Counted from the first letter of the stretch, positions 1 to 16,506 are shown. The stretch is 64,000 nucleotides of DNA from Planctomycetota bacterium (GCA_038212275.1 JBBQUR010000005.1:96001-160000), one strand, 5' to 3'. Numbers and translations: made by a program. The notes: generated from the letters alone by a model not told the origin.

Positions 1-641
1 GCGTGCGGTGCTGTCGGCGCGAAGACCTGCGGCCAGAGTGTCGCACCGAGCAGGCCGGTAGCCCCGGCGCCCAGCACAATGAGCGGGAAGGGCACGTCGA
101 AGAAGAAGATGAGCGCGAAGGCCAGCACCGCGAGACCGGCCATGACGCGGTTCTTCAGGGCGCGCCGGCCGATGCGGAGCACGGCCTCGATCACGATCGC
201 GAGCACCGCGGCCTTCAGCCCGAAGAACAGCCCGCTCACGACGGTGATCGCGCCCCAGCCGGCGTAGAGGATGGAGAGCAGCAGCATGGCGAGCATGCCG
301 GGCAGGACGAAAAGCGTGCCCGCCACCAGCCCGCCCGGCGTGCCGTGCAGCAACCACCCGATGTACACCGCAAGCTGCTGCGCCTCCGGTCCGGGCAGCA
401 GCATGCAGTAGTTGAGCGCATGCAGGAATCGCTCCTCGGAGACCCAGCGCTGCTCCTCGACGAGCACGCGGTGCATGAGCGCGATCTGCCCGGCCGGCCC
501 GCCGAAGCCTTTGAGTCCGATGGCCAGCCAGGTGCGCACGCCCTCGCGGAACGGGACGCCGTGCGATGGCGACACGCCCGGCGCCGGGGAGGACTGCGGC
601 GGCACGGCGGGCTGCGCGGGGAGGTCGTTCGTGCCGTTCAT
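1..641 (-). CDS. chrA: Chromate efflux transporter (CHR family), 5' part; runs off the window edge
   Basis: Not in the ORF track. Manual reverse-strand translation from ATG at 641 gives FGGPAGQIALMHRVLVEEQRWVSEERFLHALNYCMLLPGPEAQQLAVYIGW, the classic ChrA motif. Confidence 0.92.
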   Translation of the reverse strand, partial: MNGTNDLPAQPAVPPQSSPAPGVSPSHGVPFREGVRTWLAIGLKGFGGPAGQIALMHRVLVEEQRWVSEERFLHALNYCMLLPGPEAQQLAVYIGWLLHGTPGGLVAGTLFVLPGMLAMLLLSILYAGWGAITVVSGLFFGLKAAVLAIVIEAVLRIGRRALKNRVMAGLAVLAFALIFFFDVPFPLIVLGAGATGLLGATLWPQVFAPTAPH

Positions 642-814
642 CGCGCGATGCTCTGTATCACGCCCCGCCTCGTGCCTGAAGCGCGGCTGACGCGACAGGT
701 CTGTCCGCACGCTGCGAGCGGGAGCCCATCCGTCGCGAAGACAGCGCAGGCATGGTTCCGTTTCCGGCGAGGTCGCGCTATGTTCCTGCGGCCACCGGTT
801 CAGGAGAGACTCCC

Positions 815-1726
815 ATGCGCTCCCCGCGCGAAGCGGTCCTGCTGGCGCTTGCGCTGCTGCTGCAGGCGTGCAGCGCGACGCGTGCCTACGAGGGGCCCGT
901 CCGCCCGAAGGAGGAGCTGGCGCGCATCACGACGTCACCGGACAGCGTGAGCGACGTGGTCGACATCATCGGCCGCGGACTCACCTTCGACAGCCTCTGT
1001 CGCGTGAGACTCGTGGGCGTGGACGACGTCGAGGACTTCGACGACTTCAGCGACGGCAGCGTCGAGGTGCTGCCCGGCCACCACAGCGTGCGCGCCACAC
1101 TGACGGCGCGGATCGGATGGACGTGGACCCGACATCCCGCGTTCGTCGCGAGCTTCGATGCGCAGGCCGGGCATGAATACAAGCTGCAGGGGCGCGCGTC
1201 ATCTCTCACCGGCGAGGTCGGCTTCGATGTCCGTGACGTGGGCGACGACCTCATCGTGGCCAGCAGCGATCTGGGGCCGCAGGAGTGCGTCACGGCCAGG
1301 ATCGAGTGGGACGGCCGGCACTGGATCGAAGCCGACTGGGGCCATCTCGCGGCGGTGACCACCGCGACATACGTGCCGTCGGGCGACGTGCTCTCGCGTT
1401 GGAGTGAGCTCGTGGAGCTGCAGTATCGGCCCTCCCGGGGGCCCGTCGATGTCGAGGCGGTGATGTGGGACTGGTTGAAGGAGCAGGCGCTGGCCGGGGC
1501 CCCTGCCACGCTGACGCGGATCGAACGGGAGCCGGGATGGATCGCGACGCAGCTCAGCATCGGCGAGCCCGGCGACGGCCTCGAGCAGGGCGTGATCTGC
1601 TTCCGCGCGGGGCCGGACGGCTGCCATCTGCTGCTGCATCTGGTGCGCGGCAGGATCGACCCGACGGTCGTCGCGGACTGGATCGCGCGCTTCAAGGCCG
1701 CGGAGTTGCGCCCGACGGCGGCCTGA
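815..1726 (+). CDS. Putative two-domain lipoprotein of unknown function
   Basis: GGAG RBS before ATG 815; hydrophobic signal with lipobox LLQAC; normal globular composition. Confidence 0.7.
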   Translation: MRSPREAVLLALALLLQACSATRAYEGPVRPKEELARITTSPDSVSDVVDIIGRGLTFDSLCRVRLVGVDDVEDFDDFSDGSVEVLPGHHSVRATLTARIGWTWTRHPAFVASFDAQAGHEYKLQGRASSLTGEVGFDVRDVGDDLIVASSDLGPQECVTARIEWDGRHWIEADWGHLAAVTTATYVPSGDVLSRWSELVELQYRPSRGPVDVEAVMWDWLKEQALAGAPATLTRIEREPGWIATQLSIGEPGDGLEQGVICFRAGPDGCHLLLHLVRGRIDPTVVADWIARFKAAELRPTAA

Positions 1727-5126: not shown

Positions 5127-5233
5127 GTCTGTCGCAGCTCGCCCCGCAAGCTGCCGTCACCCCGCTCACGGGTGCGGCCAGGCACTGCGCGCGGCGTGTC
5201 CGCACGGTCACGAGTCTGTACCTCCGGCGCCGC

Positions 5234-5290
5234 CCCGGCGCAGACGCCCGGCGCAGACGCCCGGCGCAGACGCCCGGCGCAGACGCCCGG
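5234..5290. repeat. 13-bp tandem repeat (CCCGGCGCAGACG) x4.4, intergenic
   Basis: Four perfect copies plus a partial copy, read directly. Confidence 0.9.
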
Positions 5291-5399
5291 CAGATGCAGC
5301 GTTGATGGAATGCGGTACGGAAGGGAAGATGCGACGGTGCCGTCGAAGCGCGGGGAGCCGGCAGCCGGTGGAATCCGGCAGACGAAGGAGGATGAGGCC

Positions 5400-7169
5400 A
5401 TGAGCGACTTGGCAGGTTCGTGCGCGGCGTTCGTGATCGCCTGCGCGCTCCTCGCGGCTCCGCCCGCAGCCGTTGCGCTGCCCGCCGCTGCTGTGGATCC
5501 CGCCGGTCCCATCGTTCCCGCCGGTCCGGTTGCTCCCGCCGGTCCGGTTGCTCCCGCCGGCCCTGTTGCTCCCGCCGGTCCTGTTGCTCACGCCGGTCCT
5601 GTCGCTCACGCCGGTCCCGTCGTGAACGCGGCGGTGCTCGGCGGCCTCACGCGCGACACGGCGGCGGCGGAACTGCTGAAGGCTGCCGGGGTCGATGGCA
5701 CGGCGAAAGGCAAGACGCTGTTCGAACAGGTCCTCGCCAGCGAGGTGTTCGAGCACGTGGTCGTGGGGCCGTTCGACCTGTACGGCGCGCGCCTCGATGG
5801 CCAGAAGAAGCCTGCGGACCTCAAGAAGGCGATGGGCATGGCGCAGGAAGCGCTGGCCAAGCTGGTCCCCGTGATGCAGAAGCGCTTCCCCGGCAGCGAC
5901 GGCATTCTCTCCGGCCAGCGCTTCCCGATTCTGTTGATGGACAGCGACCGCGACAAGGACGAGAACGGCTTCGACGAGGTGCTGGGGCTGCTCGACCGCT
6001 GCGAGGACGAGGGCTACTCGGGCTGGAAGCCGTGGAGCCGCGTCTGGGACCCGGCCAATCTCGTCGCCGAGTCCTTCCACACGTGGGAGGTGCTCGTCGT
6101 CAACCTCGGGAACAAGGCGATCAACGAGCAGGGGCGACGCGCCTGGTTCGCGCAGCCGTTCGGCTTCGCGGTGCTGCAGGCGCTCGGCCGTCGGGTGCTC
6201 GCGCAGGGCGCGTGGGGCACGCCGGTGCCGTGGATGGCGCAGGGCCTCGTGGACGAGCTGGACATCGAAGCCCACGGGCGCGCGTGGGTGGGCGCCGCCG
6301 ACACGGGCGCCTCTCACAGCTGGTCGACGTCGCGCAGCAGCGGCTTCACGAGCACGGGCTGGTCGGGCTTCCTTCCCGATGGGCAGCAACCGCCGCCGCC
6401 CAAGGTCACCACGACATCCAGCACGACGAGCAAGTCGACCACGACGATGGGCGTTTCCGAGACCTGGGGCGACCGCAACCAGAGCGCGACCCGCCATTGG
6501 CGCGACCTGCTCAACGACCGGAAAGCCAAGCAGCCTGCCGGCTTCCGCGCCATGGCCGAAGCGCAGAGCTTCGATCCGCGCGACCGCGCCTTGTCGCGCC
6601 TCGCGATCTACCTGCTGCTGGACGTGCTGCCCTCCAGCCAGCAGTTGCTCAAGGATCTCGACCGCAAGCCGCAGGTGCCCGGCTCGCTCATGCGCGACAG
6701 CGATCCGCTGCCGGTGATCGTCGCGCGCGCGCTGGGCGGCGTGCCGGCGGTCGATGCCTTCGAGGCGCAGCCGATGCGCGCCGTGCTGACGACGGTCGGG
6801 CGCGACGACCTCATCGCGCGCTTCGAGACCCGCGGCGCCGCGCCGCTGCTCGACCTGACCGATCATCGCAAGCAGGCCGACTGGCTCTACCACCAGCCGA
6901 GCATCGACACGGACTCGCGCCGGCTGCTCGAGCTTGCCATTCAGGAGGCGGAGTTCGAGCAGCAGCGCCACGAGTGGGTGCTCGTGGGTGAGGCGCTCGA
7001 CGTCGCCGTGAACGCGGCCCTCGCCGCCAGCAAGAGCCTGCCCGAGTCGGAGAAGGACCGCGCGAAGGTGGCCGAAGCGATGACCGCCGCGCTCGACACC
7101 TTCCGCGCAGCCGCCGCCGCCGCCGCAGCCGCGGGAGCTGAAGCCGCGGGAGCTGAAGGCGGTCGATGA
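5400..7169 (+). CDS. Secreted hypothetical protein with N-terminal PAGPVA repeats
   Basis: GGAGG upstream of ATG 5400; signal-like N-terminus; strongly GC3-biased codons; Lys/Asp/Glu-rich globular body. Confidence 0.75.
   Translation: MSDLAGSCAAFVIACALLAAPPAAVALPAAAVDPAGPIVPAGPVAPAGPVAPAGPVAPAGPVAHAGPVAHAGPVVNAAVLGGLTRDTAAAELLKAAGVDGTAKGKTLFEQVLASEVFEHVVVGPFDLYGARLDGQKKPADLKKAMGMAQEALAKLVPVMQKRFPGSDGILSGQRFPILLMDSDRDKDENGFDEVLGLLDRCEDEGYSGWKPWSRVWDPANLVAESFHTWEVLVVNLGNKAINEQGRRAWFAQPFGFAVLQALGRRVLAQGAWGTPVPWMAQGLVDELDIEAHGRAWVGAADTGASHSWSTSRSSGFTSTGWSGFLPDGQQPPPPKVTTTSSTTSKSTTTMGVSETWGDRNQSATRHWRDLLNDRKAKQPAGFRAMAEAQSFDPRDRALSRLAIYLLLDVLPSSQQLLKDLDRKPQVPGSLMRDSDPLPVIVARALGGVPAVDAFEAQPMRAVLTTVGRDDLIARFETRGAAPLLDLTDHRKQADWLYHQPSIDTDSRRLLELAIQEAEFEQQRHEWVLVGEALDVAVNAALAASKSLPESEKDRAKVAEAMTAALDTFRAAAAAAAAAGAEAAGAEGGR
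5499..5622 (+). repeat. 18-bp in-frame repeat encoding (P/H)AGPVA, about 7 copies
   Basis: CCCGCCGGTCCGGTTGCT-like units. Confidence 0.85.
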
Positions 7170-8391: not shown

Positions 8392-8841
8392 ATGACGTCA
8401 CTCTTCGAGAGCCGCGGACTTTCCGAAGCGCTGCGGCGCATCGAGCGCCTGCGCGCCGACTCGCCGCGCGCCTGGGGGACGATGAGTCCGGCGCAGATGT
8501 GCGCGCACTGCTCGATCGCGTCCGAGCTCGCTCTCGGCGATCGCCGCGGGAGGCAGGCGCTGCTCGGGAAGCTGCTGTCGCCGTTCGTCAAGTCGTCGAT
8601 GCTCGGCAGCAAGCCGTTTCCGAGGAACAGCCCCACGTCGCCGCTGCTCGTCGTCACCGACGCGCGCGACTTCGAGGTCGAGCGACGAAGGCTCGTGGTG
8701 CTCGTCACGCGCTTCGGCAAGGGCGGCCCGTCGAAGACCACGCGCGATCCGCACCTCTTCTTCGGTCGGCTGAGCGGCGAGCAATGGGGGGCGCTCATGT
8801 CCAAGCACCTCGGCCATCACCTCGCGCAGTTCGGCGTGTGA
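8392..8841 (+). CDS. DUF1569 / DinB-like protein
   Basis: WGTMSPAQMCAHC, HLFFGRLSGEQWG, KHLGHHLAQFGV; GGAGG RBS. Confidence 0.85.
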   Translation: MTSLFESRGLSEALRRIERLRADSPRAWGTMSPAQMCAHCSIASELALGDRRGRQALLGKLLSPFVKSSMLGSKPFPRNSPTSPLLVVTDARDFEVERRRLVVLVTRFGKGGPSKTTRDPHLFFGRLSGEQWGALMSKHLGHHLAQFGV

Positions 8842-8884
8842 GTCAGCCGGCCACCGGCGCCTGCACCGCACGCGCCATGGCGGC

Positions 8885-11800
8885 TCAGGGATCGCCCGCG
8901 AAGCGCCACGCCGGCATGTTGTCGCGAGCAGGCATCGCATCGTGCGTCGGCATCGCGTCGCGCGGCGGGATCGCGTCGTGCGTCGGTATCGCGTCACGCG
9001 TCGGCATCGCATCGCGAGCCGCCGGCGACGTGTCGCTGGACTCCAGCGCCGCGCGGATGAGCTTCACGGGCATGGAGTTCTGCGCGAGGACCGCGTCGTG
9101 GAACTCGCGCTCCGTCCAGCGCGCACCGGTCGCGGGGTTCGTGCGGCCGGGTCGCGCTGCCGCAGCGTCGCCAGCGTCGCCCAGGTCACCGCGCTCCGCC
9201 GTGCTGCCGACCAGCTCGTCGTGCAGCGCGCGGAGCTGCAGGCCTCCGATCATGTAGGCGCACTGGTAGAGCGGGCCGTAGTTGCCGCCGATGTAGCGGC
9301 GCACCTCGCTCGTCGCGCCGGCCTTCTCGTGGCCCACGCGGTCCACGAGGAAGTCGATCATCTCCTGCGGCTGCATCTCGCCGAGATGGAACTTCAGCGA
9401 AACGATGATGCGCGCGGCTCGGTGCATGCGCCAGAAGAGCATGCCGATGCGGTCTTCGGGGCTCTGCGGCCAGCCCAGTTCCCAGAAGCGCATTTCCCAG
9501 TACAGCGCCCAGCCTTCGACGAGGAAGGGCGTGGAGAACATGCCGCGCTGCGTGTTGCTGCGCGCCGCAACGAAACCCTGCAGGTGGTGGCCCGGAATGA
9601 GTTCGTGCGGCACGACGATCCGCGAGAAGTGCACGTTGTTGCCGCGCATCGTCATGAGCTTCGTCTCGGTGTCCATGTCGCGCGTCGGGTAGGCGACGAG
9701 CACATCCTGCCCGCCGTATGCGGCGTAGGGCAGCGTGCGTTGGGTGTCCGCGTCGATCATGCGCACGCGCCAGGTCTCGCGGCACAGGTCGGGGATGGTG
9801 ATGAGGTCATTGCCGTCGAGGAAGGCGATGGCTTCCTTTGCCTGCTCCGTGACGAGCCTGTCCTGCTCGCCGGGCGGGACGTGATCGGCCTTCACGACGG
9901 CGAGCGCGGCCTTCCAGTCCTCGCCGAAACCCATCTCGGCGGAGGCGAGCTTCAGCTGGGTCTCGCACCACGCGAACTCGCGCTCGCCGATCGCGAGCAG
10001 TTCCTCGGGCGAGTAGTCGATCATCTCGGCGGCGAGGTCGTCCACGAGCGCGTCGCGCCCGATCGGGTCGCCGACGAGCGGATCCTCGTCTTTGCCGTGC
10101 AGGCCGGCGATGTCCTCGCGCAGCAGCCTGGCGTAGTCGTTCAGCGCGGCGATCGTCGCGTCGTACGGCTTGCGCGTCCACCACGAGAACCCCGGCGAGA
10201 ACTCGTCGTAGTGCGCGAACCAGGTGTCGAGTGCGCGCCGCAGCCCGTTCAGCTCGCGCGCCGCCCGCTGCGCGATCACGGGAGTGGTGGTGAGCGGGGC
10301 GTCGGCGGCGGGCTTCGACTCCAACTGGACATCGTCCGCAGGAGGCTGCGGCATGGCCGGCGGCGGAGTCGGCGTCGCATTGCCGGCGGTCGCGGAAGGC
10401 AGCAAGGTTCGTGCGACGAATGGCCGTCCCAGGGCTGCCGCCATGGCCTCGGCAAGCTGCTGGTATCGCCACGGTGCCTCGAGCGCGAAGGCGGTCGCGG
10501 CCGTCGTGCCGACGCGGCCAAGCATCCGGCCATCGGCGTCGTCTCGCGGATCCCATGAGCCGCGCGCTCCGTCGTCCATTCGCTGCAATCGCGTGGCGGT
10601 GTCGACGAGCGAATGCCACCAATCGGTCTGCCCGACATCGCCCGCCTGCCGGAGCGCGTGCGCGCCGAAGAACCACGTGACCGGGTCGTTCAGGTCCCGC
10701 GGATTGCCGTCGCCGGGCCTCGAGGCGAGCAGCGCAGCCAGCGCCTGATCGTTGAGGCCACGGCTTCCGAGGCGGAACTCTCCGGGGTCGCTGAGCTGGC
10801 GGGCCAGCAACGCGGCCGCGACGCGCAGCACCTCGGGTGAGTCGCTCGGAGGCGACGCGCCATCGCCCGGTGCGGCTCCCGGTCGCTCTGCACGACCCGC
10901 CGCCGGCGTGACGGCAATCATCGCGTCGAGCGAAGACAGCGCCTCCTCGATGGCCGTATCGTCGGGCGCATCGGGCATCCTCATGTCGCGCGCCACGGCC
11001 GCGGTCATCAGCGCGAGGCATGTGAGGGAGGCGTCGCCGATCAGGTCGGCGCCGCCGGCCTCAGTCATCGCATCGTGCCAGCCCGCGCCCGGTGTCCGCA
11101 GCGTGGAGAGATGCCGCAGCGCTCGTTCCGTCGGGGCCTTGAAGAGGCGATTCCTCGTCATCAAGAAGGTCTCGCTGAGCGCCATGGTCGCGACGATGTG
11201 ATCCAAGGTGGGCACGGGCTGCTGCGGCCCCGCAAAGCTCCCATCGGCCGACTGCCGCGCGATGAGGTAGCGCAACCCTCGCGCAACACTTGCGTGATGC
11301 AGACCTATCTTGTCCGTGTTGTCGTCGCCGAGCATGGCCAGCAGTGCGAGCGCCGTGATGCCCACGTCGTGCTGCGGGTCGGCCATGCCTCCGCACGGCG
11401 GTCCGCCATGCGCGACGCACTGGGCGTCGAGTGTGAGGCCAGACCACGAGCCATCGGCCGCCTGATGCCGGGCGAGCCAAGTGAGCGCTGAGGTGATGGC
11501 CTGTCCGTGAGGAGCGGCGCGTGCCTTGTCGCAAGCGTGTCCGCGTCCCCAGAACAGCTTGTCGCGCAGCCGTGGCGGCGTTTCCGTGCGCGTCGGCTCC
11601 GGCATCGTGACGTCGTGCACGGATGAAGTCGGAGCGGCCTGCGTCGCTGAGGGTACGGCCACCGGATACGGCGGCTCCGCATCAGGCGCGTTGAGGTGCC
11701 AGCCGAGGAGCGAGTCGTAGCGGAAGAACACCTCGCAGGTCAGCGCGTCGAGCGCGGTCGTGCACGCGCGGCCGGCTTCGGAGCACCACGCATCGGCCTC

Positions 11801-13399
11801 GGGATCCCAGGAGCCGGCCAGCTCGCCATCGTGCTGCTGATGTGCCAGCACGTTCTCCTGCATCGATGTCTCCCACGCCCGCCACGCGGCGCCTGCATCG
11901 GCGTCGCGAAGTTCGTTCGCGAACCAGAGTGCGGTCGAGCCGAAGAACCAGTCGTGAGCGGCGCAGCGTCCGGAACCTGCAGTGGCCGCGGCCGGCGGCT
12001 GCTCGGCGATGAACGTGACTTGCTTGTGGATGAGGCTCAAGATGCTCGGCCTGCCAAGAGTGGTGTGGTCGAGCAGTCGGGCCAGCAGGCTGATGGAGGT
12101 CATGAGTCGTGCGCTGTCGCCCGGCGAGGCCGGCGCGGCCTGATCCTGCGGGTGAAGCTCGAAAGTCCGGTCGCTCGTGATGCCGCTCGCCTCATCGGTG
12201 AGTTCATCGAGGCGTGCCAGCGCGTCCTTCAAGGCCGTGTCATCGACGGCGAGCGTGGAGTCATGCGCCAGGCCGAGAGCGAGCACGGCCCAGCCCGTGA
12301 TCCAGAGATCCTCGTCCTGAAGCGGTGCTGCCGGATGCGCTTCGGCTGCGGCGCGCCAGAGTGTCCCGGGCCCGCGCATCGCCACGAGGTGGCGCAGCGC
12401 GCGCTCGGCGGGCAGACGCAACACCTTGTCGTGCGTGAGCGCCCAGCCATCGACGAGCGCAAGCGTCGCCACGGCATTCCCGTAGTGCGATGCACGTGCC
12501 GGGCCTTCGGCAAAACTGCCATCGGCCTGCTGCGCCCCGATGAGGGCGCGCAATCCTCGCAGCACGTTCGACGTCGCCGGAGCGCGTTGCCCCGGCACGC
12601 TGCCAGTGCCCATGAGTGCGAGCAGCGGCAACGCAGTTGCTGTCACGTCGAACGAGGTGCCTGTCGCGCTCTCGCCCGCCGGCCACGTGCCGTCCTCATG
12701 CTGGTTCGACTGGAACCACCAGACCAGATCCGAATGAACGTGCCACGGTGTGTCGGCATGGTTCTGGCTGGGTTTCGGAAGCGGTGGCAGTGGTTCCCAG
12801 GCCATGGCAGGCGCGGCTGTCGGAGCCTCTGCCGCCTTGGCGCCCTTGCCCTTCTCCACGCGCTCCTTGATGGCCTTGACCTGCTTGGCCAGCGCGTCGA
12901 GTTGCGTGGCGGCTGCTTCCGGGTCGACGGGGGCGAGGTGCCAGCGCGCTTCTTCCAGCGCGGCGATCTCGTCGGCGAAGGGAAGCAGCGGCGACGTCTC
13001 GGTGAGCTTGACGCGCGTCGCGGCGCGGTGGTTGTCGGCGGAGCGGATCTCGTTGCGCAGCAGCAGCCAGTCGATGCGGCCGTCGGCGTCGAGCGCGTCC
13101 ACGTCGAGCGCCTCGAGGCGCGCGAGCCACGCGGCGTCGAGCGCATCCTCGCGGGCCAGCCGCGCCGGCGAGCGATCGATGGTGTAGAAGTCGCGCACAG
13201 ACGCGCTGTCCGACGCGAACTCCGCGATGAGCGCACGCATGTCGGGCGCGGCCGCTCCCGCCGCGCCGGCACGAGCGACGGCGGCGGCCGGCGCGGGTCG
13301 AGCGGGCGGCGGAGCGTCGGCCGCGCCGCCGGCGAGGCACGCGCCCGCCCCGAGCAATCCGGCCAGTGCGAGGACGGGCAACAGCGAGCGCATCGGCAT
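8885..13399 (-). CDS. DUF885-family putative metallopeptidase with two inserted prenyltransferase/squalene-cyclase-like barrels; exported, possibly a lipoprotein
   Basis: DUF885 motifs IDWLLLRN, WFAHYDEFSPGFSWW, GDPIGR, HELIPGHHLQ, VEGWALYWE, YQCAYMIG. The central ~840 aa carries QxxDGSW/F repeats and two GSWDP...GRxxTTA...RY ends. Confidence 0.85.
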   Translation of the reverse strand: MPMRSLLPVLALAGLLGAGACLAGGAADAPPPARPAPAAAVARAGAAGAAAPDMRALIAEFASDSASVRDFYTIDRSPARLAREDALDAAWLARLEALDVDALDADGRIDWLLLRNEIRSADNHRAATRVKLTETSPLLPFADEIAALEEARWHLAPVDPEAAATQLDALAKQVKAIKERVEKGKGAKAAEAPTAAPAMAWEPLPPLPKPSQNHADTPWHVHSDLVWWFQSNQHEDGTWPAGESATGTSFDVTATALPLLALMGTGSVPGQRAPATSNVLRGLRALIGAQQADGSFAEGPARASHYGNAVATLALVDGWALTHDKVLRLPAERALRHLVAMRGPGTLWRAAAEAHPAAPLQDEDLWITGWAVLALGLAHDSTLAVDDTALKDALARLDELTDEASGITSDRTFELHPQDQAAPASPGDSARLMTSISLLARLLDHTTLGRPSILSLIHKQVTFIAEQPPAAATAGSGRCAAHDWFFGSTALWFANELRDADAGAAWRAWETSMQENVLAHQQHDGELAGSWDPEADAWCSEAGRACTTALDALTCEVFFRYDSLLGWHLNAPDAEPPYPVAVPSATQAAPTSSVHDVTMPEPTRTETPPRLRDKLFWGRGHACDKARAAPHGQAITSALTWLARHQAADGSWSGLTLDAQCVAHGGPPCGGMADPQHDVGITALALLAMLGDDNTDKIGLHHASVARGLRYLIARQSADGSFAGPQQPVPTLDHIVATMALSETFLMTRNRLFKAPTERALRHLSTLRTPGAGWHDAMTEAGGADLIGDASLTCLALMTAAVARDMRMPDAPDDTAIEEALSSLDAMIAVTPAAGRAERPGAAPGDGASPPSDSPEVLRVAAALLARQLSDPGEFRLGSRGLNDQALAALLASRPGDGNPRDLNDPVTWFFGAHALRQAGDVGQTDWWHSLVDTATRLQRMDDGARGSWDPRDDADGRMLGRVGTTAATAFALEAPWRYQQLAEAMAAALGRPFVARTLLPSATAGNATPTPPPAMPQPPADDVQLESKPAADAPLTTTPVIAQRAARELNGLRRALDTWFAHYDEFSPGFSWWTRKPYDATIAALNDYARLLREDIAGLHGKDEDPLVGDPIGRDALVDDLAAEMIDYSPEELLAIGEREFAWCETQLKLASAEMGFGEDWKAALAVVKADHVPPGEQDRLVTEQAKEAIAFLDGNDLITIPDLCRETWRVRMIDADTQRTLPYAAYGGQDVLVAYPTRDMDTETKLMTMRGNNVHFSRIVVPHELIPGHHLQGFVAARSNTQRGMFSTPFLVEGWALYWEMRFWELGWPQSPEDRIGMLFWRMHRAARIIVSLKFHLGEMQPQEMIDFLVDRVGHEKAGATSEVRRYIGGNYGPLYQCAYMIGGLQLRALHDELVGSTAERGDLGDAGDAAAARPGRTNPATGARWTEREFHDAVLAQNSMPVKLIRAALESSDTSPAARDAMPTRDAIPTHDAIPPRDAMPTHDAMPARDNMPAWRFAGDP

Positions 13400-13421
13400 C
13401 TCTCCGGGTGACTTGCCGCGG

Positions 13422-14798
13422 TCAGCGCGCCGGCGACGATCTTCCCAGCGCGGTGTCCACCGTGTGCTTGATCGTGCGCTGCGGGATGCCGGGGACGCCG
13501 CCGCGATGGCCGACGCCGTCCTTCATCACGTCGAGCATGGCGCCGGCGTCCAGCAGCTCGGGCTTGGAGATCACGTCACCACGGCAGAGCAGCAGGTCCG
13601 CGCGCTGGCCCGGCAGCAGCGTGCCGGCGTCGGTCTGGCCGATCTCTTCGGCGGCGAGGCCGGTGCCCGCGTGCCACGCGGCGAGCGCGGAGAGGCCGTC
13701 GTTCATGAGGTGCACCAGCTCCATGTAGTTGCGGCCGTGCATGCCGGGCAGCACGGGGTCCGTGCCGGCGAGGATCTTCAGGCCGGCGCTCGCGGCGTGC
13801 TGCACGGCGCGCGAGTGCGTCTCGTTCGCCCGGTGCACCTTTTCCATCACGAAGGGAGAGAGGCCGGCGGCTTTCGGCAGCTCCGCCATGACCCACGATG
13901 TCGGAGTGACCGTGCACCCGCGCTTGTGCGCTTTCTCCGCGAGCTTCTCGTCCATGAAGGAGATGTGCTGGATGTCGGAGACGCCGTGCTTGATGGCCAG
14001 CGCGATGCCGCTGGCGCTGTGCGCGTGCGCCGCGACGCGCAGGCCGCGCGCTCCCGCTTCGTCGCAGATGGCGGCGATTTCCTTGCCGGTGAAGTCGCGA
14101 TGCTCGAGGGCGTCACCGGGTGAGGCGATGCCCGGGCTGGCGCAGATCTTGATGAGGTCCGCGCCGCAGGCCGCGATCTCGCGCACGCGCTTGCGGGCCT
14201 CCCACGGCCCGTCGACGATGCTGCTCGGGCGGCCCGGCGCTTCGGGCCACAGGCGCGAGAGCTCGCCGTGGCAGCGATCGGGGCCGCGGAAGTCCGCGTG
14301 GCCGCCGGTGGTGGAGAGCATGCAGATCGCGATCTTGAGCCGCGGGCCGAGCATGATGCCTTCGTCGACGAGGCGCTTCATGAGCTGCGTGGCGCCGCCG
14401 ATGTCGCGCATCGTCGTGACGCCGCCGTCCACGAGCGTGGCGTGCAGGATCTTCTCCACGTAGACCAGCGCGCCGCCGCCGAGCATCGTGTCCATCGCAG
14501 CCTTGGCGAGGCCGAGCACCGTGATGTGCCCGTGGCAGTCGATGAGCCCCGGGGTCACCGTGAGGCCTGTGCAGTCCACGAGCCTGTCACCGCCGGCGAG
14601 CTCGGTCGCGCCGGCGATGTCGGTCGCGCCGGCTGTCGCGCCGCGCCGCGCGAGGCCCTTCGCAAGCAGCCTGGCGTCATGTGGCTTGATGGCATGAATG
14701 CGCGCGCCGTCGAGATGCAGATCCACGTGGGCGTGCATGGCGCTCTTCGTCGCGGAGGTGCCGTCGTAGAGGCGTTCGATGTTCGCAAGGATCAGCAT
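13422..14798 (-). CDS. Metal-dependent amidohydrolase (prolidase-like subgroup)
   Basis: PGLIDCHGH, GVTTMRDIGG, GADLIKI, VAAHAH, IQH, AGTD, PGQRADLL. Confidence 0.9.
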   Translation of the reverse strand: MLILANIERLYDGTSATKSAMHAHVDLHLDGARIHAIKPHDARLLAKGLARRGATAGATDIAGATELAGGDRLVDCTGLTVTPGLIDCHGHITVLGLAKAAMDTMLGGGALVYVEKILHATLVDGGVTTMRDIGGATQLMKRLVDEGIMLGPRLKIAICMLSTTGGHADFRGPDRCHGELSRLWPEAPGRPSSIVDGPWEARKRVREIAACGADLIKICASPGIASPGDALEHRDFTGKEIAAICDEAGARGLRVAAHAHSASGIALAIKHGVSDIQHISFMDEKLAEKAHKRGCTVTPTSWVMAELPKAAGLSPFVMEKVHRANETHSRAVQHAASAGLKILAGTDPVLPGMHGRNYMELVHLMNDGLSALAAWHAGTGLAAEEIGQTDAGTLLPGQRADLLLCRGDVISKPELLDAGAMLDVMKDGVGHRGGVPGIPQRTIKHTVDTALGRSSPAR

Positions 14799-14806
14799 CG
14801 GGACTC

Positions 14807-15136
14807 TCAGCCGGGGAACTTCGGATGCGGGGCCATGAAGACGAGCAGCGTGGCGGGTGCCTGCGAGTCGTTGTGCGCGGCGTGGTCCACGCCGGCGGGC
14901 GCGATCGCGACCTCGCCGGGCCCCAGCGTGCGGCTTTCGGCGCCGATCTCGATGCGGCAGCGGCCGGTGAGCACGCTGTAGACCTTGTCGCTGCCGGCAT
15001 GGGCATGGCTGGCCTGGGACTGGCCCGGGAGCAGCCCGTACACGTCGCAGAACATGCGTGGCGACTCGAAGAGGTTGACCTTGGACAGCTTGTCCGGCCG
15101 GAAGGTCGCGGCCTGGGCGGTGTCGTGAAACGTCAT
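14807..15136 (-). CDS. Cupin domain protein
   Basis: HAHAGSDKVYSVLTG...APAGVDHAAHN cupin motifs; GGAG RBS. Confidence 0.88.
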   Translation of the reverse strand: MTFHDTAQAATFRPDKLSKVNLFESPRMFCDVYGLLPGQSQASHAHAGSDKVYSVLTGRCRIEIGAESRTLGPGEVAIAPAGVDHAAHNDSQAPATLLVFMAPHPKFPG

Positions 15137-15861: not shown

Positions 15862-16506
15862 TCAGCGCATCGGCAGCTCGGCGCAGACTTTGGCGATCAT
15901 CTCCTTGGCGTTCGCCACCTGCGACTCCGACATCGCGCGGCCCGCGACGCCGCCCACGACGGCGCCCGCGATGGCGCCGACGCTGGCGTTGTCGCCCATG
16001 TTGTGGCCGAGCACGGCGCCGGCCGCGGTGCCGAGGATCGCGCCGGTGATCATGGAGGTGTTGCTGTTCACGTTGCCTTCGCCGTTGCCGATCCAGATGA
16101 GCTCGCCGGTCTCGACGTCGAACATCTTGGCCGTGAGCGCAAGGTCATCGCCGACGGTCTGCACGTTGACCACGGTCAGCGCCTGCACGTTGAGGATGTG
16201 CCCGAGCTTCTCGCGGTCTTCCTGGCTGGTGAAGTTCTGGTTCTGGAAGTCCAGCTCGTCGATGGCCTTCTGGATGTTGCCGCGCTCGATCACGTTCCAG
16301 CCCTTCTTGAAGAACTCGTACTGGAAGGTGTCCACGAGCGCCTGCCGGATCTCGGGCTTGAAGGTCGGGTTGTTGCCGTCGACCACGGCCATGCGCTGCA
16401 CGCGGCTGATGTCGTAGGTCTTGCTGAACGTGCTCTCGGCGGTGGTGGAGGAGCAGCCGGTCAGCGCGAGGGCTGCGGCCAGCACGACGAGGAGGGCGGA
16501 CTTCAT
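15862..16506 (-). CDS. Lipoprotein with a CsgG/TolB-N-like domain and glycine zipper
   Basis: Lipobox LTGC; VIERGNIQKAIDEL...LGHILNVQAL...AKMFDVETGELIW; GAILGTAAGAVLG zipper. Confidence 0.8.
   Translation of the reverse strand: MKSALLVVLAAALALTGCSSTTAESTFSKTYDISRVQRMAVVDGNNPTFKPEIRQALVDTFQYEFFKKGWNVIERGNIQKAIDELDFQNQNFTSQEDREKLGHILNVQALTVVNVQTVGDDLALTAKMFDVETGELIWIGNGEGNVNSNTSMITGAILGTAAGAVLGHNMGDNASVGAIAGAVVGGVAGRAMSESQVANAKEMIAKVCAELPMR

Follow-up and report, generated by a model that had tools for sequence, protein, structure and literature searches.

A planctomycetal DUF885 protein with two predicted (α/α)6 barrels inserted in a single loop

A stretch of 64,000 nucleotides from a Planctomycetota bacterium (GCA_038212275.1, JBBQUR010000005.1:96001-160000), analyzed at its full length and called the window here, carries on its minus strand an open reading frame (ORF) at positions 8885..13399 that stays open throughout and encodes a protein of 1504 amino acids (aa), designated P0001. 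The protein belongs to the DUF885 family, and its DUF885 sequence halts at about aa 186 and restarts at about aa 1039, with ~853 aa in between that hold two homologous domains modeled as whole (α/α)6 barrels. A preliminary description of this DNA, made from its sequence alone, had proposed a DUF885 peptidase carrying two terpene-cyclase/prenyltransferase-like barrels inside one loop, acting either as an exported bifunctional enzyme or as a peptidase with tandem binding barrels. The host genome is that of a high-GC member of the Planctomycetota, probably of the order Phycisphaerales.

All parts of the gene lie on the minus strand. A signal-like N-terminal segment with a possible lipobox (…LLGAGA-C21, 13337..13399, read from the sequence) precedes the helical N-terminal half of DUF885 (aa 55-190, 12830..13237), which was delimited by Pfam and by the equivalent part of a model of the homolog P0003. 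The first linker (aa 191-219, 12743..12829) is rich in proline and alanine and is modeled as disordered, with a predicted local distance difference test score (pLDDT) below 50 over residues 1-29 of the insert model. It leads into barrel unit 1 (aa ~220-564, 11708..12742), modeled as a 12-helix (α/α)6 toroid and the more degenerate of the two copies. The linker between the barrels (aa 565-622, 11534..11707) is likewise modeled as disordered (pLDDT <50, insert-model residues 375-432). Unit 2 (aa ~623-994, 10418..11533) is assigned as an (α/α)6 toroid from the model and a match to SQHop_cyclase_C, and is orthologous to the single barrel of the homologs P0003 and P0004. A third linker rich in proline, alanine and threonine (aa 995-1039, 10283..10417; pLDDT <50 in the last part of the insert model) joins the C-terminal half of DUF885 (aa 1040-1455, 9035..10282; Pfam profile positions 182-531, E 1.2e-47), which contains a putative metal site.

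The interruption of DUF885 is evident from the Pfam matches, which place PF05960 on P0001 in two stretches with a whole-protein score of 170.5 bits (cut-off 32.4; E 1.5e-49). Residues 75-184 correspond to profile positions 18-126 (E 2.4e-4, 21.3 bits, with the first 190 aa scanned alone), and residues 1079-1451 correspond to profile positions 182-531. The last DUF885 residues before the insert are ...KERVEKGK (aa 185, ~12845) and the sequence restarts with TPVIAQRAARE (aa 1039, ~10285); both break points had been placed correctly to within ~15 nt in the preliminary description. As it had also reported, the DUF885 motifs HELIPGHH (aa 1265-1272, 9584..9607) and EGWALY (aa 1295-1300, 9500..9517) are intact. 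The former aligns with HEAIPGHY of the solved structure 3u24 and HEANPGHH of 3o0y and is invariant in alignments A1 and A7, and the latter aligns with EGWA of both structures, with E1295, G1296 and W1297 invariant. A string search of the 1504 aa found no HExxH. On the basis of these motifs, of fusion partners discussed below and of the membership of DUF885 in the Peptidase_MA clan according to Pfam, as given in the available part of PMC12572635, we infer a putative peptidase activity for P0001, DUF885 being a family with a gluzincin-like fold. The N-terminus shows a basic residue, a hydrophobic run and then ...GAGAC with Cys21, as read from the sequence. Cys21 is invariant across the four nested homologs, and a comparable cysteine is present in two further DUF885 relatives (L100 and the G006 ortholog). 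The earlier proposal of a signal peptide with a possible lipobox therefore stands as far as a hydrophobic stretch ending at an invariant cysteine is concerned, and P0001 looks exported and is probably a lipid-anchored lipoprotein.

The two inserted units are homologous to each other (32% identity over 360 aa, E 6e-30 by BLASTP), as the motifs they share had suggested. Two structural models were made, one of full-length P0003 and one of the P0001 insert (aa 191-1020), P0001 being too long to fold whole. The P0003 model (mean pLDDT 80.9) is confident over residues 61-200, 253-627 and 662-1085, with pLDDT >85 in the first of these ranges, and the connecting segments 201-252 and 628-661 have pLDDT <50. 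Using VIA-align, it was matched to 3u24 with Z 32.7 over 497 aligned residues (model range 63..1070), to 3o0y_A with Z 31.3 and a root-mean-square deviation (rmsd) of 3.2, and to 3iuk_A with Z 30.3; the matched model ranges (60..1075) cover both DUF885 halves. Because single solved DUF885 chains align over both halves, the split halves rejoin in the model of this one-barrel homolog as one ordinary DUF885 fold, from which the barrel is an excursion. Folding of the two halves together had been named as a check in the preliminary description, and in the P0003 model they do so (Z 30-33 to solved chains). The P0003 insert falls between two long helices, 172-200 and 672-699 according to DSSP.

The model of the P0001 insert (mean pLDDT 79) shows two domains of 12 helices each, and the segments before, between (58 aa) and after the domains are all modeled as disordered. 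The barrels are thereby predicted to be flexibly tethered by linkers of ~30-60 aa rich in proline and alanine. The P0003 barrel matches 8pak_B (Z 25.0, rmsd 3.0, 280 aa) and squalene-hopene cyclase (SHC) 2sqc_A (Z 25.0), followed at Z 21-23 by cellobiose 2-epimerases, AprG and GH76. Foldseek matches also include the thioester domains (TEDs) of complement C3 and C4, TEP1 and CD109, and a profile of the barrel family matches SHC 2sqc at E 5.8e-17 and TEP1 at E 3e-4. The models thus support an insert of two whole (α/α)6 barrels of the terpene-cyclase/TED superfamily in one DUF885 loop, in agreement with the earlier assignment of the units as α/α barrels.

An architecture of this kind could arise from mis-assembly of a metagenome bin that joined barrels to an unrelated DUF885 gene. 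The genome assembly consists of 40 contigs and is 91% complete, and a sharp step in G+C content at third codon positions (GC3) lies at both junctions, as might be expected of such a chimera. However, another assembler (run X1) produced a 10,082-nt contig at a depth of ~29 that spans 8600-13700 without a break and differs by one base; it corresponds to the database entry P0002 (1502 aa, one residue different). Run X1 may derive from the same sample, and its contig is taken as an independent assembly and not as independent data. Another sample from this study (X2) gave difference-free pieces at 10184-10446, across the junction of unit 2 with the C-part, and at 11363-11638, in the inter-unit linker, a coverage that excludes the junction of the N-part with unit 1. 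The junction support called for in the preliminary description is thus present over both junctions in the independent assembly and over the unit 2/C-part junction in the second sample. Short joints in the reads that would connect distant positions, such as 10375 to 13072, have sides of 20-32 letters and were set aside as most likely derived from other organisms; the length they skip would also break the frame. Furthermore, the homologs P0003, P0004 and P0036, from other contigs, carry a barrel at the same site, and we consider an assembly chimera to have a very low probability.

Over all searches, DUF885 with a barrel in this loop was found besides P0001 only in P0002, which is the same protein, and in P0003 (1091 aa), P0004 (1056 aa) and P0036 (978 aa). 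Only P0001 has two barrels, and the latter three have one each. The C-terminal half of P0001 is 82-83% identical to those of P0003 and P0004. Among the best 150 barrel clusters, DUF885 was present only in P0003 and P0036, and a contig scan with P0001 alone gave four pattern matches and no relative. In collections with one genome per species, at least 599 related loci were found, of which the best 80 gave matches of ~1.6-1.8 kb and no barrel (exception: L067). The loop measured -2 to 61 aa in 85 of 87 related loci. In orthologs from the same family, whose C-parts are 60-69% identical, the N and C matches lie next to each other in frames of 427-845 aa. The loop of 263 aa at L067 is probably an artifact; in proteins of its type (P0183), a further region similar to the N-part is present. 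The architecture is therefore rare, as had been supposed, and no description of it was found in the literature searched. Two other rearrangements of DUF885 were observed. P0183, P0207 and six similar proteins (839-920 aa), as well as L067, have an extra N-part-like region at the N-terminus plus a complete DUF885, which may be a partial duplication, and P0010-P0015 and P0017 from Amycolatopsis (1107-2209 aa) contain two to four tandem DUF885 C-terminal regions.

The evolutionary origin of the nested form was examined with trees of hosts and of barrels. In the host tree, P0001, P0003 and P0004 form a clade (support 100/99) that is sister (80/85) to the insert-less metagenome sequences L094-L099, with 75-78% identity, and P0036 is sister (99/98) to insert-less L100, with 85% identity. 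The loop of L100 is a low-complexity linker of ~45 aa. Monophyly of the four nested hosts was rejected (approximately unbiased test, p 6e-72); the nested hosts are not one clade, and therefore at least two insertions or several losses have taken place. In the tree of barrels, a single clade of 18 rows (100/98) contains all five embedded copies as well as the stand-alone copies from the genome of the window. Unit 2 groups with the barrels of P0003 and P0004 (100/100), and unit 1 (branch length 1.96) and the P0036 barrel (1.02) take no resolved placement. With the stand-alone barrel C3a the P0036 barrel shares 49-51% identity, as against 38% with unit 2, which fits a separate capture. Unit 1 may have arisen either by tandem duplication or by separate capture.

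Another relative points to the loop itself. L094, whose C-part is 77.6% identical, carries a different insert of ~120 aa in the same loop (L094:3121-3492, plus strand) that is not of low complexity and had no Pfam match. In pairwise comparisons it resembled the ExbD-like part of P0066 weakly (E 0.021) and P0074 not at all, and the term 'ExbD-like' is a lead only for this insert. Different inserts and barrel captures at one position argue that the hairpin loop between the two long DUF885 helices is, on the sequences compared, a repeated landing site for domains. In a separate family relative, G006, the DUF885 gene is broken across contig ends (end of C117 and start of C217; L093 and L088) within a repeat of the same loop rich in proline, alanine, glutamate and lysine.

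Given the fold, the barrels might be expected to perform chemistry of their own, which would make P0001 a bifunctional enzyme with terpene-cyclase, prenyl-transfer or other (α/α)6 catalysis such as that of GH76 or epimerases. The best fold matches are indeed class II terpene cyclases (Z 25), with GH76, AprG and cellobiose 2-epimerases also matched (Z 21-23), and unit 2 matches SQHop_cyclase_C barely over the Pfam cut-off (30.1 bits in the whole protein, cut-off 26.1; E 2.1e-5 when scanned alone). The tandem also recalls the two-barrel build of SHC, and Foldseek aligned 865-877 columns to SHC chains, but with an rmsd of 27. The catalytic signatures, however, speak against this proposal. A string search for D.DD or D.D[DE] found none in the 1504 aa of P0001, in line with the earlier report of no canonical DXDD, and D.DD occurs in 17 of 191 family barrels, about the chance rate. 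The family motif DV..TA aligns within SHC residues 392-569 and not to an acid motif. Scores to the NCBIfam cyclase models lie far under their cut-offs (TIGR01787, 38.3 versus 322.7 bits; TIGR01507, 25 versus 431; TIGR03463, 20.5 versus 851). Prenyltrans (PF00432) reaches 12.4 bits for unit 1 (cut-off 26.5; E 0.1) and gave no match for unit 2. Thioester chemistry is not indicated either: the string C[GASL]E[QN] is absent from P0001 and from all 191 family barrels, and unit 2 scores 16.6 bits against the A2M TED model (PF07678), under the cut-off of 22. Probable export would place the protein away from isoprenoid diphosphates, and the 58-aa linker modeled as disordered between the barrels leaves no single cavity. 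From these sequence features, the barrels are apparently non-catalytic, terpene or prenyl chemistry is unlikely, and a bifunctional enzyme appears very improbable. Of the two functions originally put forward, a peptidase with tandem binding barrels fits the data, whereas a bifunctional enzyme or a part in lipidation is disfavored by the missing DxDD and thioester strings, by the scores under cut-off and by the usual placement of the barrel family outside the membrane, on kinases, M56 proteins, VWA, ExbD and A2M proteins.

In order to place the units in a wider context, an exhaustive HMMER search of representative clusters was performed with unit 2. It returned 6127 clusters at E<=1e-3, 2964 at <=1e-10 and 32 at <=1e-30, with alignments mostly near full unit length and query positions 38-387 of 420 covered in hundreds of members. 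Look-alikes in feature space are planctomycetal clusters labeled hypothetical or 'prenyltransferase/squalene oxidase repeat'. Pfam was run on 53 of the 150 listed barrel proteins and identified as partners Pkinase (3), M56 of the BlaR1 type (1), VIT+VWA (2), FHA (1), ExbD (2), MORN_2 (6), FG-GAP (2), PEGA (1), Kelch, A2M/MG2 (1) and DUF885 (1, P0036). A second barrel protein with BlaR1-type M56 is P0019, and P0009 consists of a kinase, a hydrophobic stretch and two barrels. Two to three barrels per protein were present in 20 of those examined, and many stand-alone members start with a signal or membrane anchor. In P0175, which has MG2 and A2M domains, the barrel-matching stretch (1197-1546) lies between them, in the TED position. 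On account of the partners, the anchors, the lack of a thioester and the chance-level D.DD, the family is most readily understood as a promiscuous, mostly planctomycetal module that is probably non-catalytic and located outside the membrane. A full-text literature search for studies of the barrel family found nothing relevant.

The genome of the window carries its own adjacent pair of membrane-anchored barrel genes on contig C3 (G000:C3:180524-183306; L006 4513-6102 and 6189-7754, minus strand; 529 and 521 aa). The two share an N-terminal …LEDxLRxLLRxSPYLVxSLxxHA… followed by a hydrophobic anchor, and similar pairs occur in many genomes of the order. The gene context of this stand-alone pair gave no functional hint.

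The partners also raise the possibility of a sensor or gate, in which the barrels would bind a small molecule or envelope component and control access to the DUF885 active site by allosteric or steric means. In Ser/Thr kinases and BlaR1-type M56 proteins, members of the family take the extracytoplasmic 'sensor' position, and tandem barrel pairs exist in some proteins. However, the linkers of P0001 model as long and disordered, which suits a tether better than a fixed lid, and insert-less orthologs evidently work without such a gate. We therefore regard control of the active site by the barrels as doubtful.

The partners and neighbors of DUF885 bear on its putative substrate. A search for relatives of the C-terminal half used a length filter of 827-2632 aa, which favors fused forms. 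Among the matches listed, 98 of 120 long relatives contain Peptidase_S9, mostly with DPPIV_N, and other partners are M14, M24, the prolyl-oligopeptidase propeller and NHL. The partner is attached at the end, with DUF885 uninterrupted, in 11 of the 12 relatives checked. In P0196 (965 aa, from a cluster of 37 members), a contiguous DUF885 belonging to this clade is preceded by a weak GH88-like (α/α)6 match (E 4.8e-7), an end-to-end arrangement. In the window, a co-directional amidohydrolase gene (13422..14798, minus strand; Pfam Amidohydro_1) lies upstream at 22 nt from the DUF885 start. Its best curated match is the Xaa-Pro dipeptidase model NF051886 (E 1.1e-54, 186 bits, under the 500-bit cut-off). 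The order of amidohydrolase then DUF885 recurs in G006 and L094. The S9, M14 and M24 fusions together with the Xaa-Pro-dipeptidase-like neighbor suggest that this DUF885 clade may serve to break down peptides, possibly proline-containing ones.

Additional features surround the pair. A co-directional cupin gene (14807..15136, minus strand; Pfam Cupin_2, E 2.9e-14) lies upstream at 8 nt from the amidohydrolase gene. A glycine-zipper lipoprotein gene is found near the amidohydrolase-DUF885 pair both in the window (15862-16506, minus strand) and at L094:112-879 (plus strand), and the neighborhood is therefore conserved beyond the pair. Within the DUF885 gene, an 18-nt tandem repeat (aa ~1461-1497, 8921..9016, minus strand; Tandem Repeats Finder, period 18, 4.8 copies) encodes about six RDAMPT-like hexapeptides. 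It sits right before the conserved C-terminal AWRFAGDP and is absent from P0003, P0004 and P0036. At 5172-7169 on the plus strand lies an ORF of 665 aa whose GC3 of 0.86 resembles that of coding sequence; it has PAGPV(A/V) repeats close to the N-terminus and had no Pfam or NCBIfam match.

We favor, with a rough probability of 0.55, the reading that P0001 is a DUF885 core equipped with two tethered, non-catalytic barrels that serve binding or targeting. In this proposal, a DUF885 hairpin loop that is short or disordered in relatives has taken up two copies of a planctomycetal toroid module. The barrels would act as tethered binding or targeting modules akin to the carbohydrate-binding modules of glycoside hydrolases, and would hold a ligand, a substrate or a site of the envelope close to the DUF885 active site. 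The DUF885 core would then act on peptides, probably proline-containing ones, and the Xaa-Pro-dipeptidase-like amidohydrolase in the cytoplasm might complete the breakdown.

Several observations weigh against this reading. For the core, the metal motif is HExxPGH rather than HExxH, and the metal-ligand geometry is therefore only putative. No activity of any DUF885 protein was found in the literature searched; the available parts of a hopanoid-transport preprint (PMC12324291) and of a vitronectin-binding study with a DUF885 protein among its pull-down candidates (PMC10281475) add nothing on function. The model of the reassembled core is that of P0003 and not of P0001, and the alignment used for it (A2) has 9 of 57 rows partly misaligned; alignments A3 and A4 were dropped, as in them the N-half of DUF885 proteins lacking an insert was aligned with the barrel. 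For the neighborhood, the amidohydrolase has no evident signal peptide, and any coupling to DUF885 would therefore cross the membrane. For the barrels, we know of no ligand of any member of the family. They also evolve faster than the core, with 44-54% identity as against 82-87% among P0001, P0003 and P0004, and the embedded copies sit on branches of 1.0-2.0 compared with 0.2-0.5 for stand-alone paralogs. Barrel GC3 is lower (0.81 versus 0.92), and unit 1, with 50 of 74 conserved positions, is under the range of the stand-alone members.

The points on barrel evolution are also what would be seen if the barrels were tolerated passengers, inserted by illegitimate recombination into a permissive disordered loop and slowly degenerating with little or no function. 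The loop is variable in length and holds unrelated inserts in close relatives, and close insert-less sisters exist for both nested lineages. The composition of the gene is in keeping with such passengers. GC3 is 0.919 in the DUF885 N-part and 0.929 in the C-part, compared with 0.806 in unit 1 and 0.813 in unit 2; five other window genes have 0.92-0.95 and the stand-alone barrels of contig C3 have 0.92-0.93. The comparison of insert and flanks proposed in the preliminary description thus gives 0.81 versus 0.92-0.93, and the steps coincide with the junctions, where values of 0.90-0.95 in the DUF885 halves pass to 0.75-0.85 over the whole insert, a compositional scar still visible at the domain boundaries. 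Either foreign origin or relaxed constraint may have caused the step. Conservation was assessed over 30 stand-alone members, which have 74 sites with conservation of 80% or more. Of these sites, 59 are retained in unit 2 and 50 in unit 1, compared with 59-73 in the stand-alone members. The cysteine pair of the family Cys-loop before the DVG.T helix, present in 123 of 191 family barrels by a loose pattern, is C661 and C669 in unit 2 and falls in gapped columns in unit 1, where the loop is lost. The GC3 and conserved-position data fit a changed function and relaxed constraint alike.

Nevertheless, about 850 codons remain open in P0001 and both units model as complete, confident barrels. The unit-2 barrel has been kept in the diverged P0001, P0003 and P0004, with 52-54% identity between unit 2 and the P0003 barrel, and the core motifs GSWDP and GR..TA are retained in the barrels of all three. 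Moreover, one module family occupies one loop in hosts that do not form a clade, a pattern more readily understood if barrel and core are useful together. Tolerated passengers seem unlikely to us.

A more specific version of the binding proposal would explain the stand-alone genes as well. In these Planctomycetota, the stand-alone membrane-anchored barrels may be non-covalent, TED-like receptors that hand envelope or environmental (proline-rich) polypeptides to the DUF885 lipoprotein. P0001 would be the covalent two-receptor version of this otherwise undescribed system of substrate capture, a 'Rosetta stone'. The capture at the same loop in hosts that are not one clade, and of an unrelated third domain in a close relative, prompted this idea, and under it the DUF885 loop may be the natural docking point for barrel receptors. 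We consider it speculative and on balance improbable.

The natural fusion offers a testable link between two large families without known function: DUF885, with three solved structures and no assay, and a barrel family of thousands of clusters. Should the barrels bind something, that ligand would be a strong candidate for the DUF885 substrate. Should they be passengers, the finding would be a curiosity of domain shuffling only. Moreover, the locus illustrates cleanly the repeated use of one loop for whole-domain insertion, which is useful for studies on the origin of nested architectures.

Both the core and the inserted units can be compared with known systems. The solved DUF885 structures 3u24, 3o0y and 3iuk are uncharacterized, and their PDB entries, in keeping with the N-terminus of P0001, are titled putative lipoproteins; 3u24 and 3o0y share with P0001 the HExxPGH(H/Y) and EGWA motifs. 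Ordinary relatives have a loop of -2 to 61 aa, whereas P0001 has an interruption of ~853 aa. The inserted units share the motifs HQ..DG.W, DVG.T.LALLA, GSWDP and GGR..TA with the planctomycetal single-barrel family. The embedded copies differ from its stand-alone members in having no membrane anchor of their own, a faster evolution and a lower GC3, and unit 1 has in addition lost the Cys-loop and 24 of the 74 conserved positions. SHC and other class II terpene cyclases (2sqc, 8pak, drimenyl diphosphate synthase) resemble the barrels in the toroid and the QW-like repeats (Z 24-25), and SHC, like P0001, has two barrels in tandem. However, P0001 has no DxDD, scores far under the NCBIfam cut-offs, is probably exported, and has its barrels separated by a linker modeled as disordered, with no common cavity. 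The TEDs of alpha-2-macroglobulin, complement C3 and TEP1 are likewise toroids within a larger, protease-related extracytoplasmic protein, but P0001 lacks a CGEQ-type thioester and its Pfam TED score is under the cut-off. Carbohydrate-binding modules on hydrolases are non-catalytic, are joined by flexible linkers and raise the local concentration of substrate. In P0001 the barrels sit within a loop of the catalytic domain and not at its end, and the analogy is one of mechanism only. P0001 is a rare variant that combines known kinds of domains and not a new kind of system.

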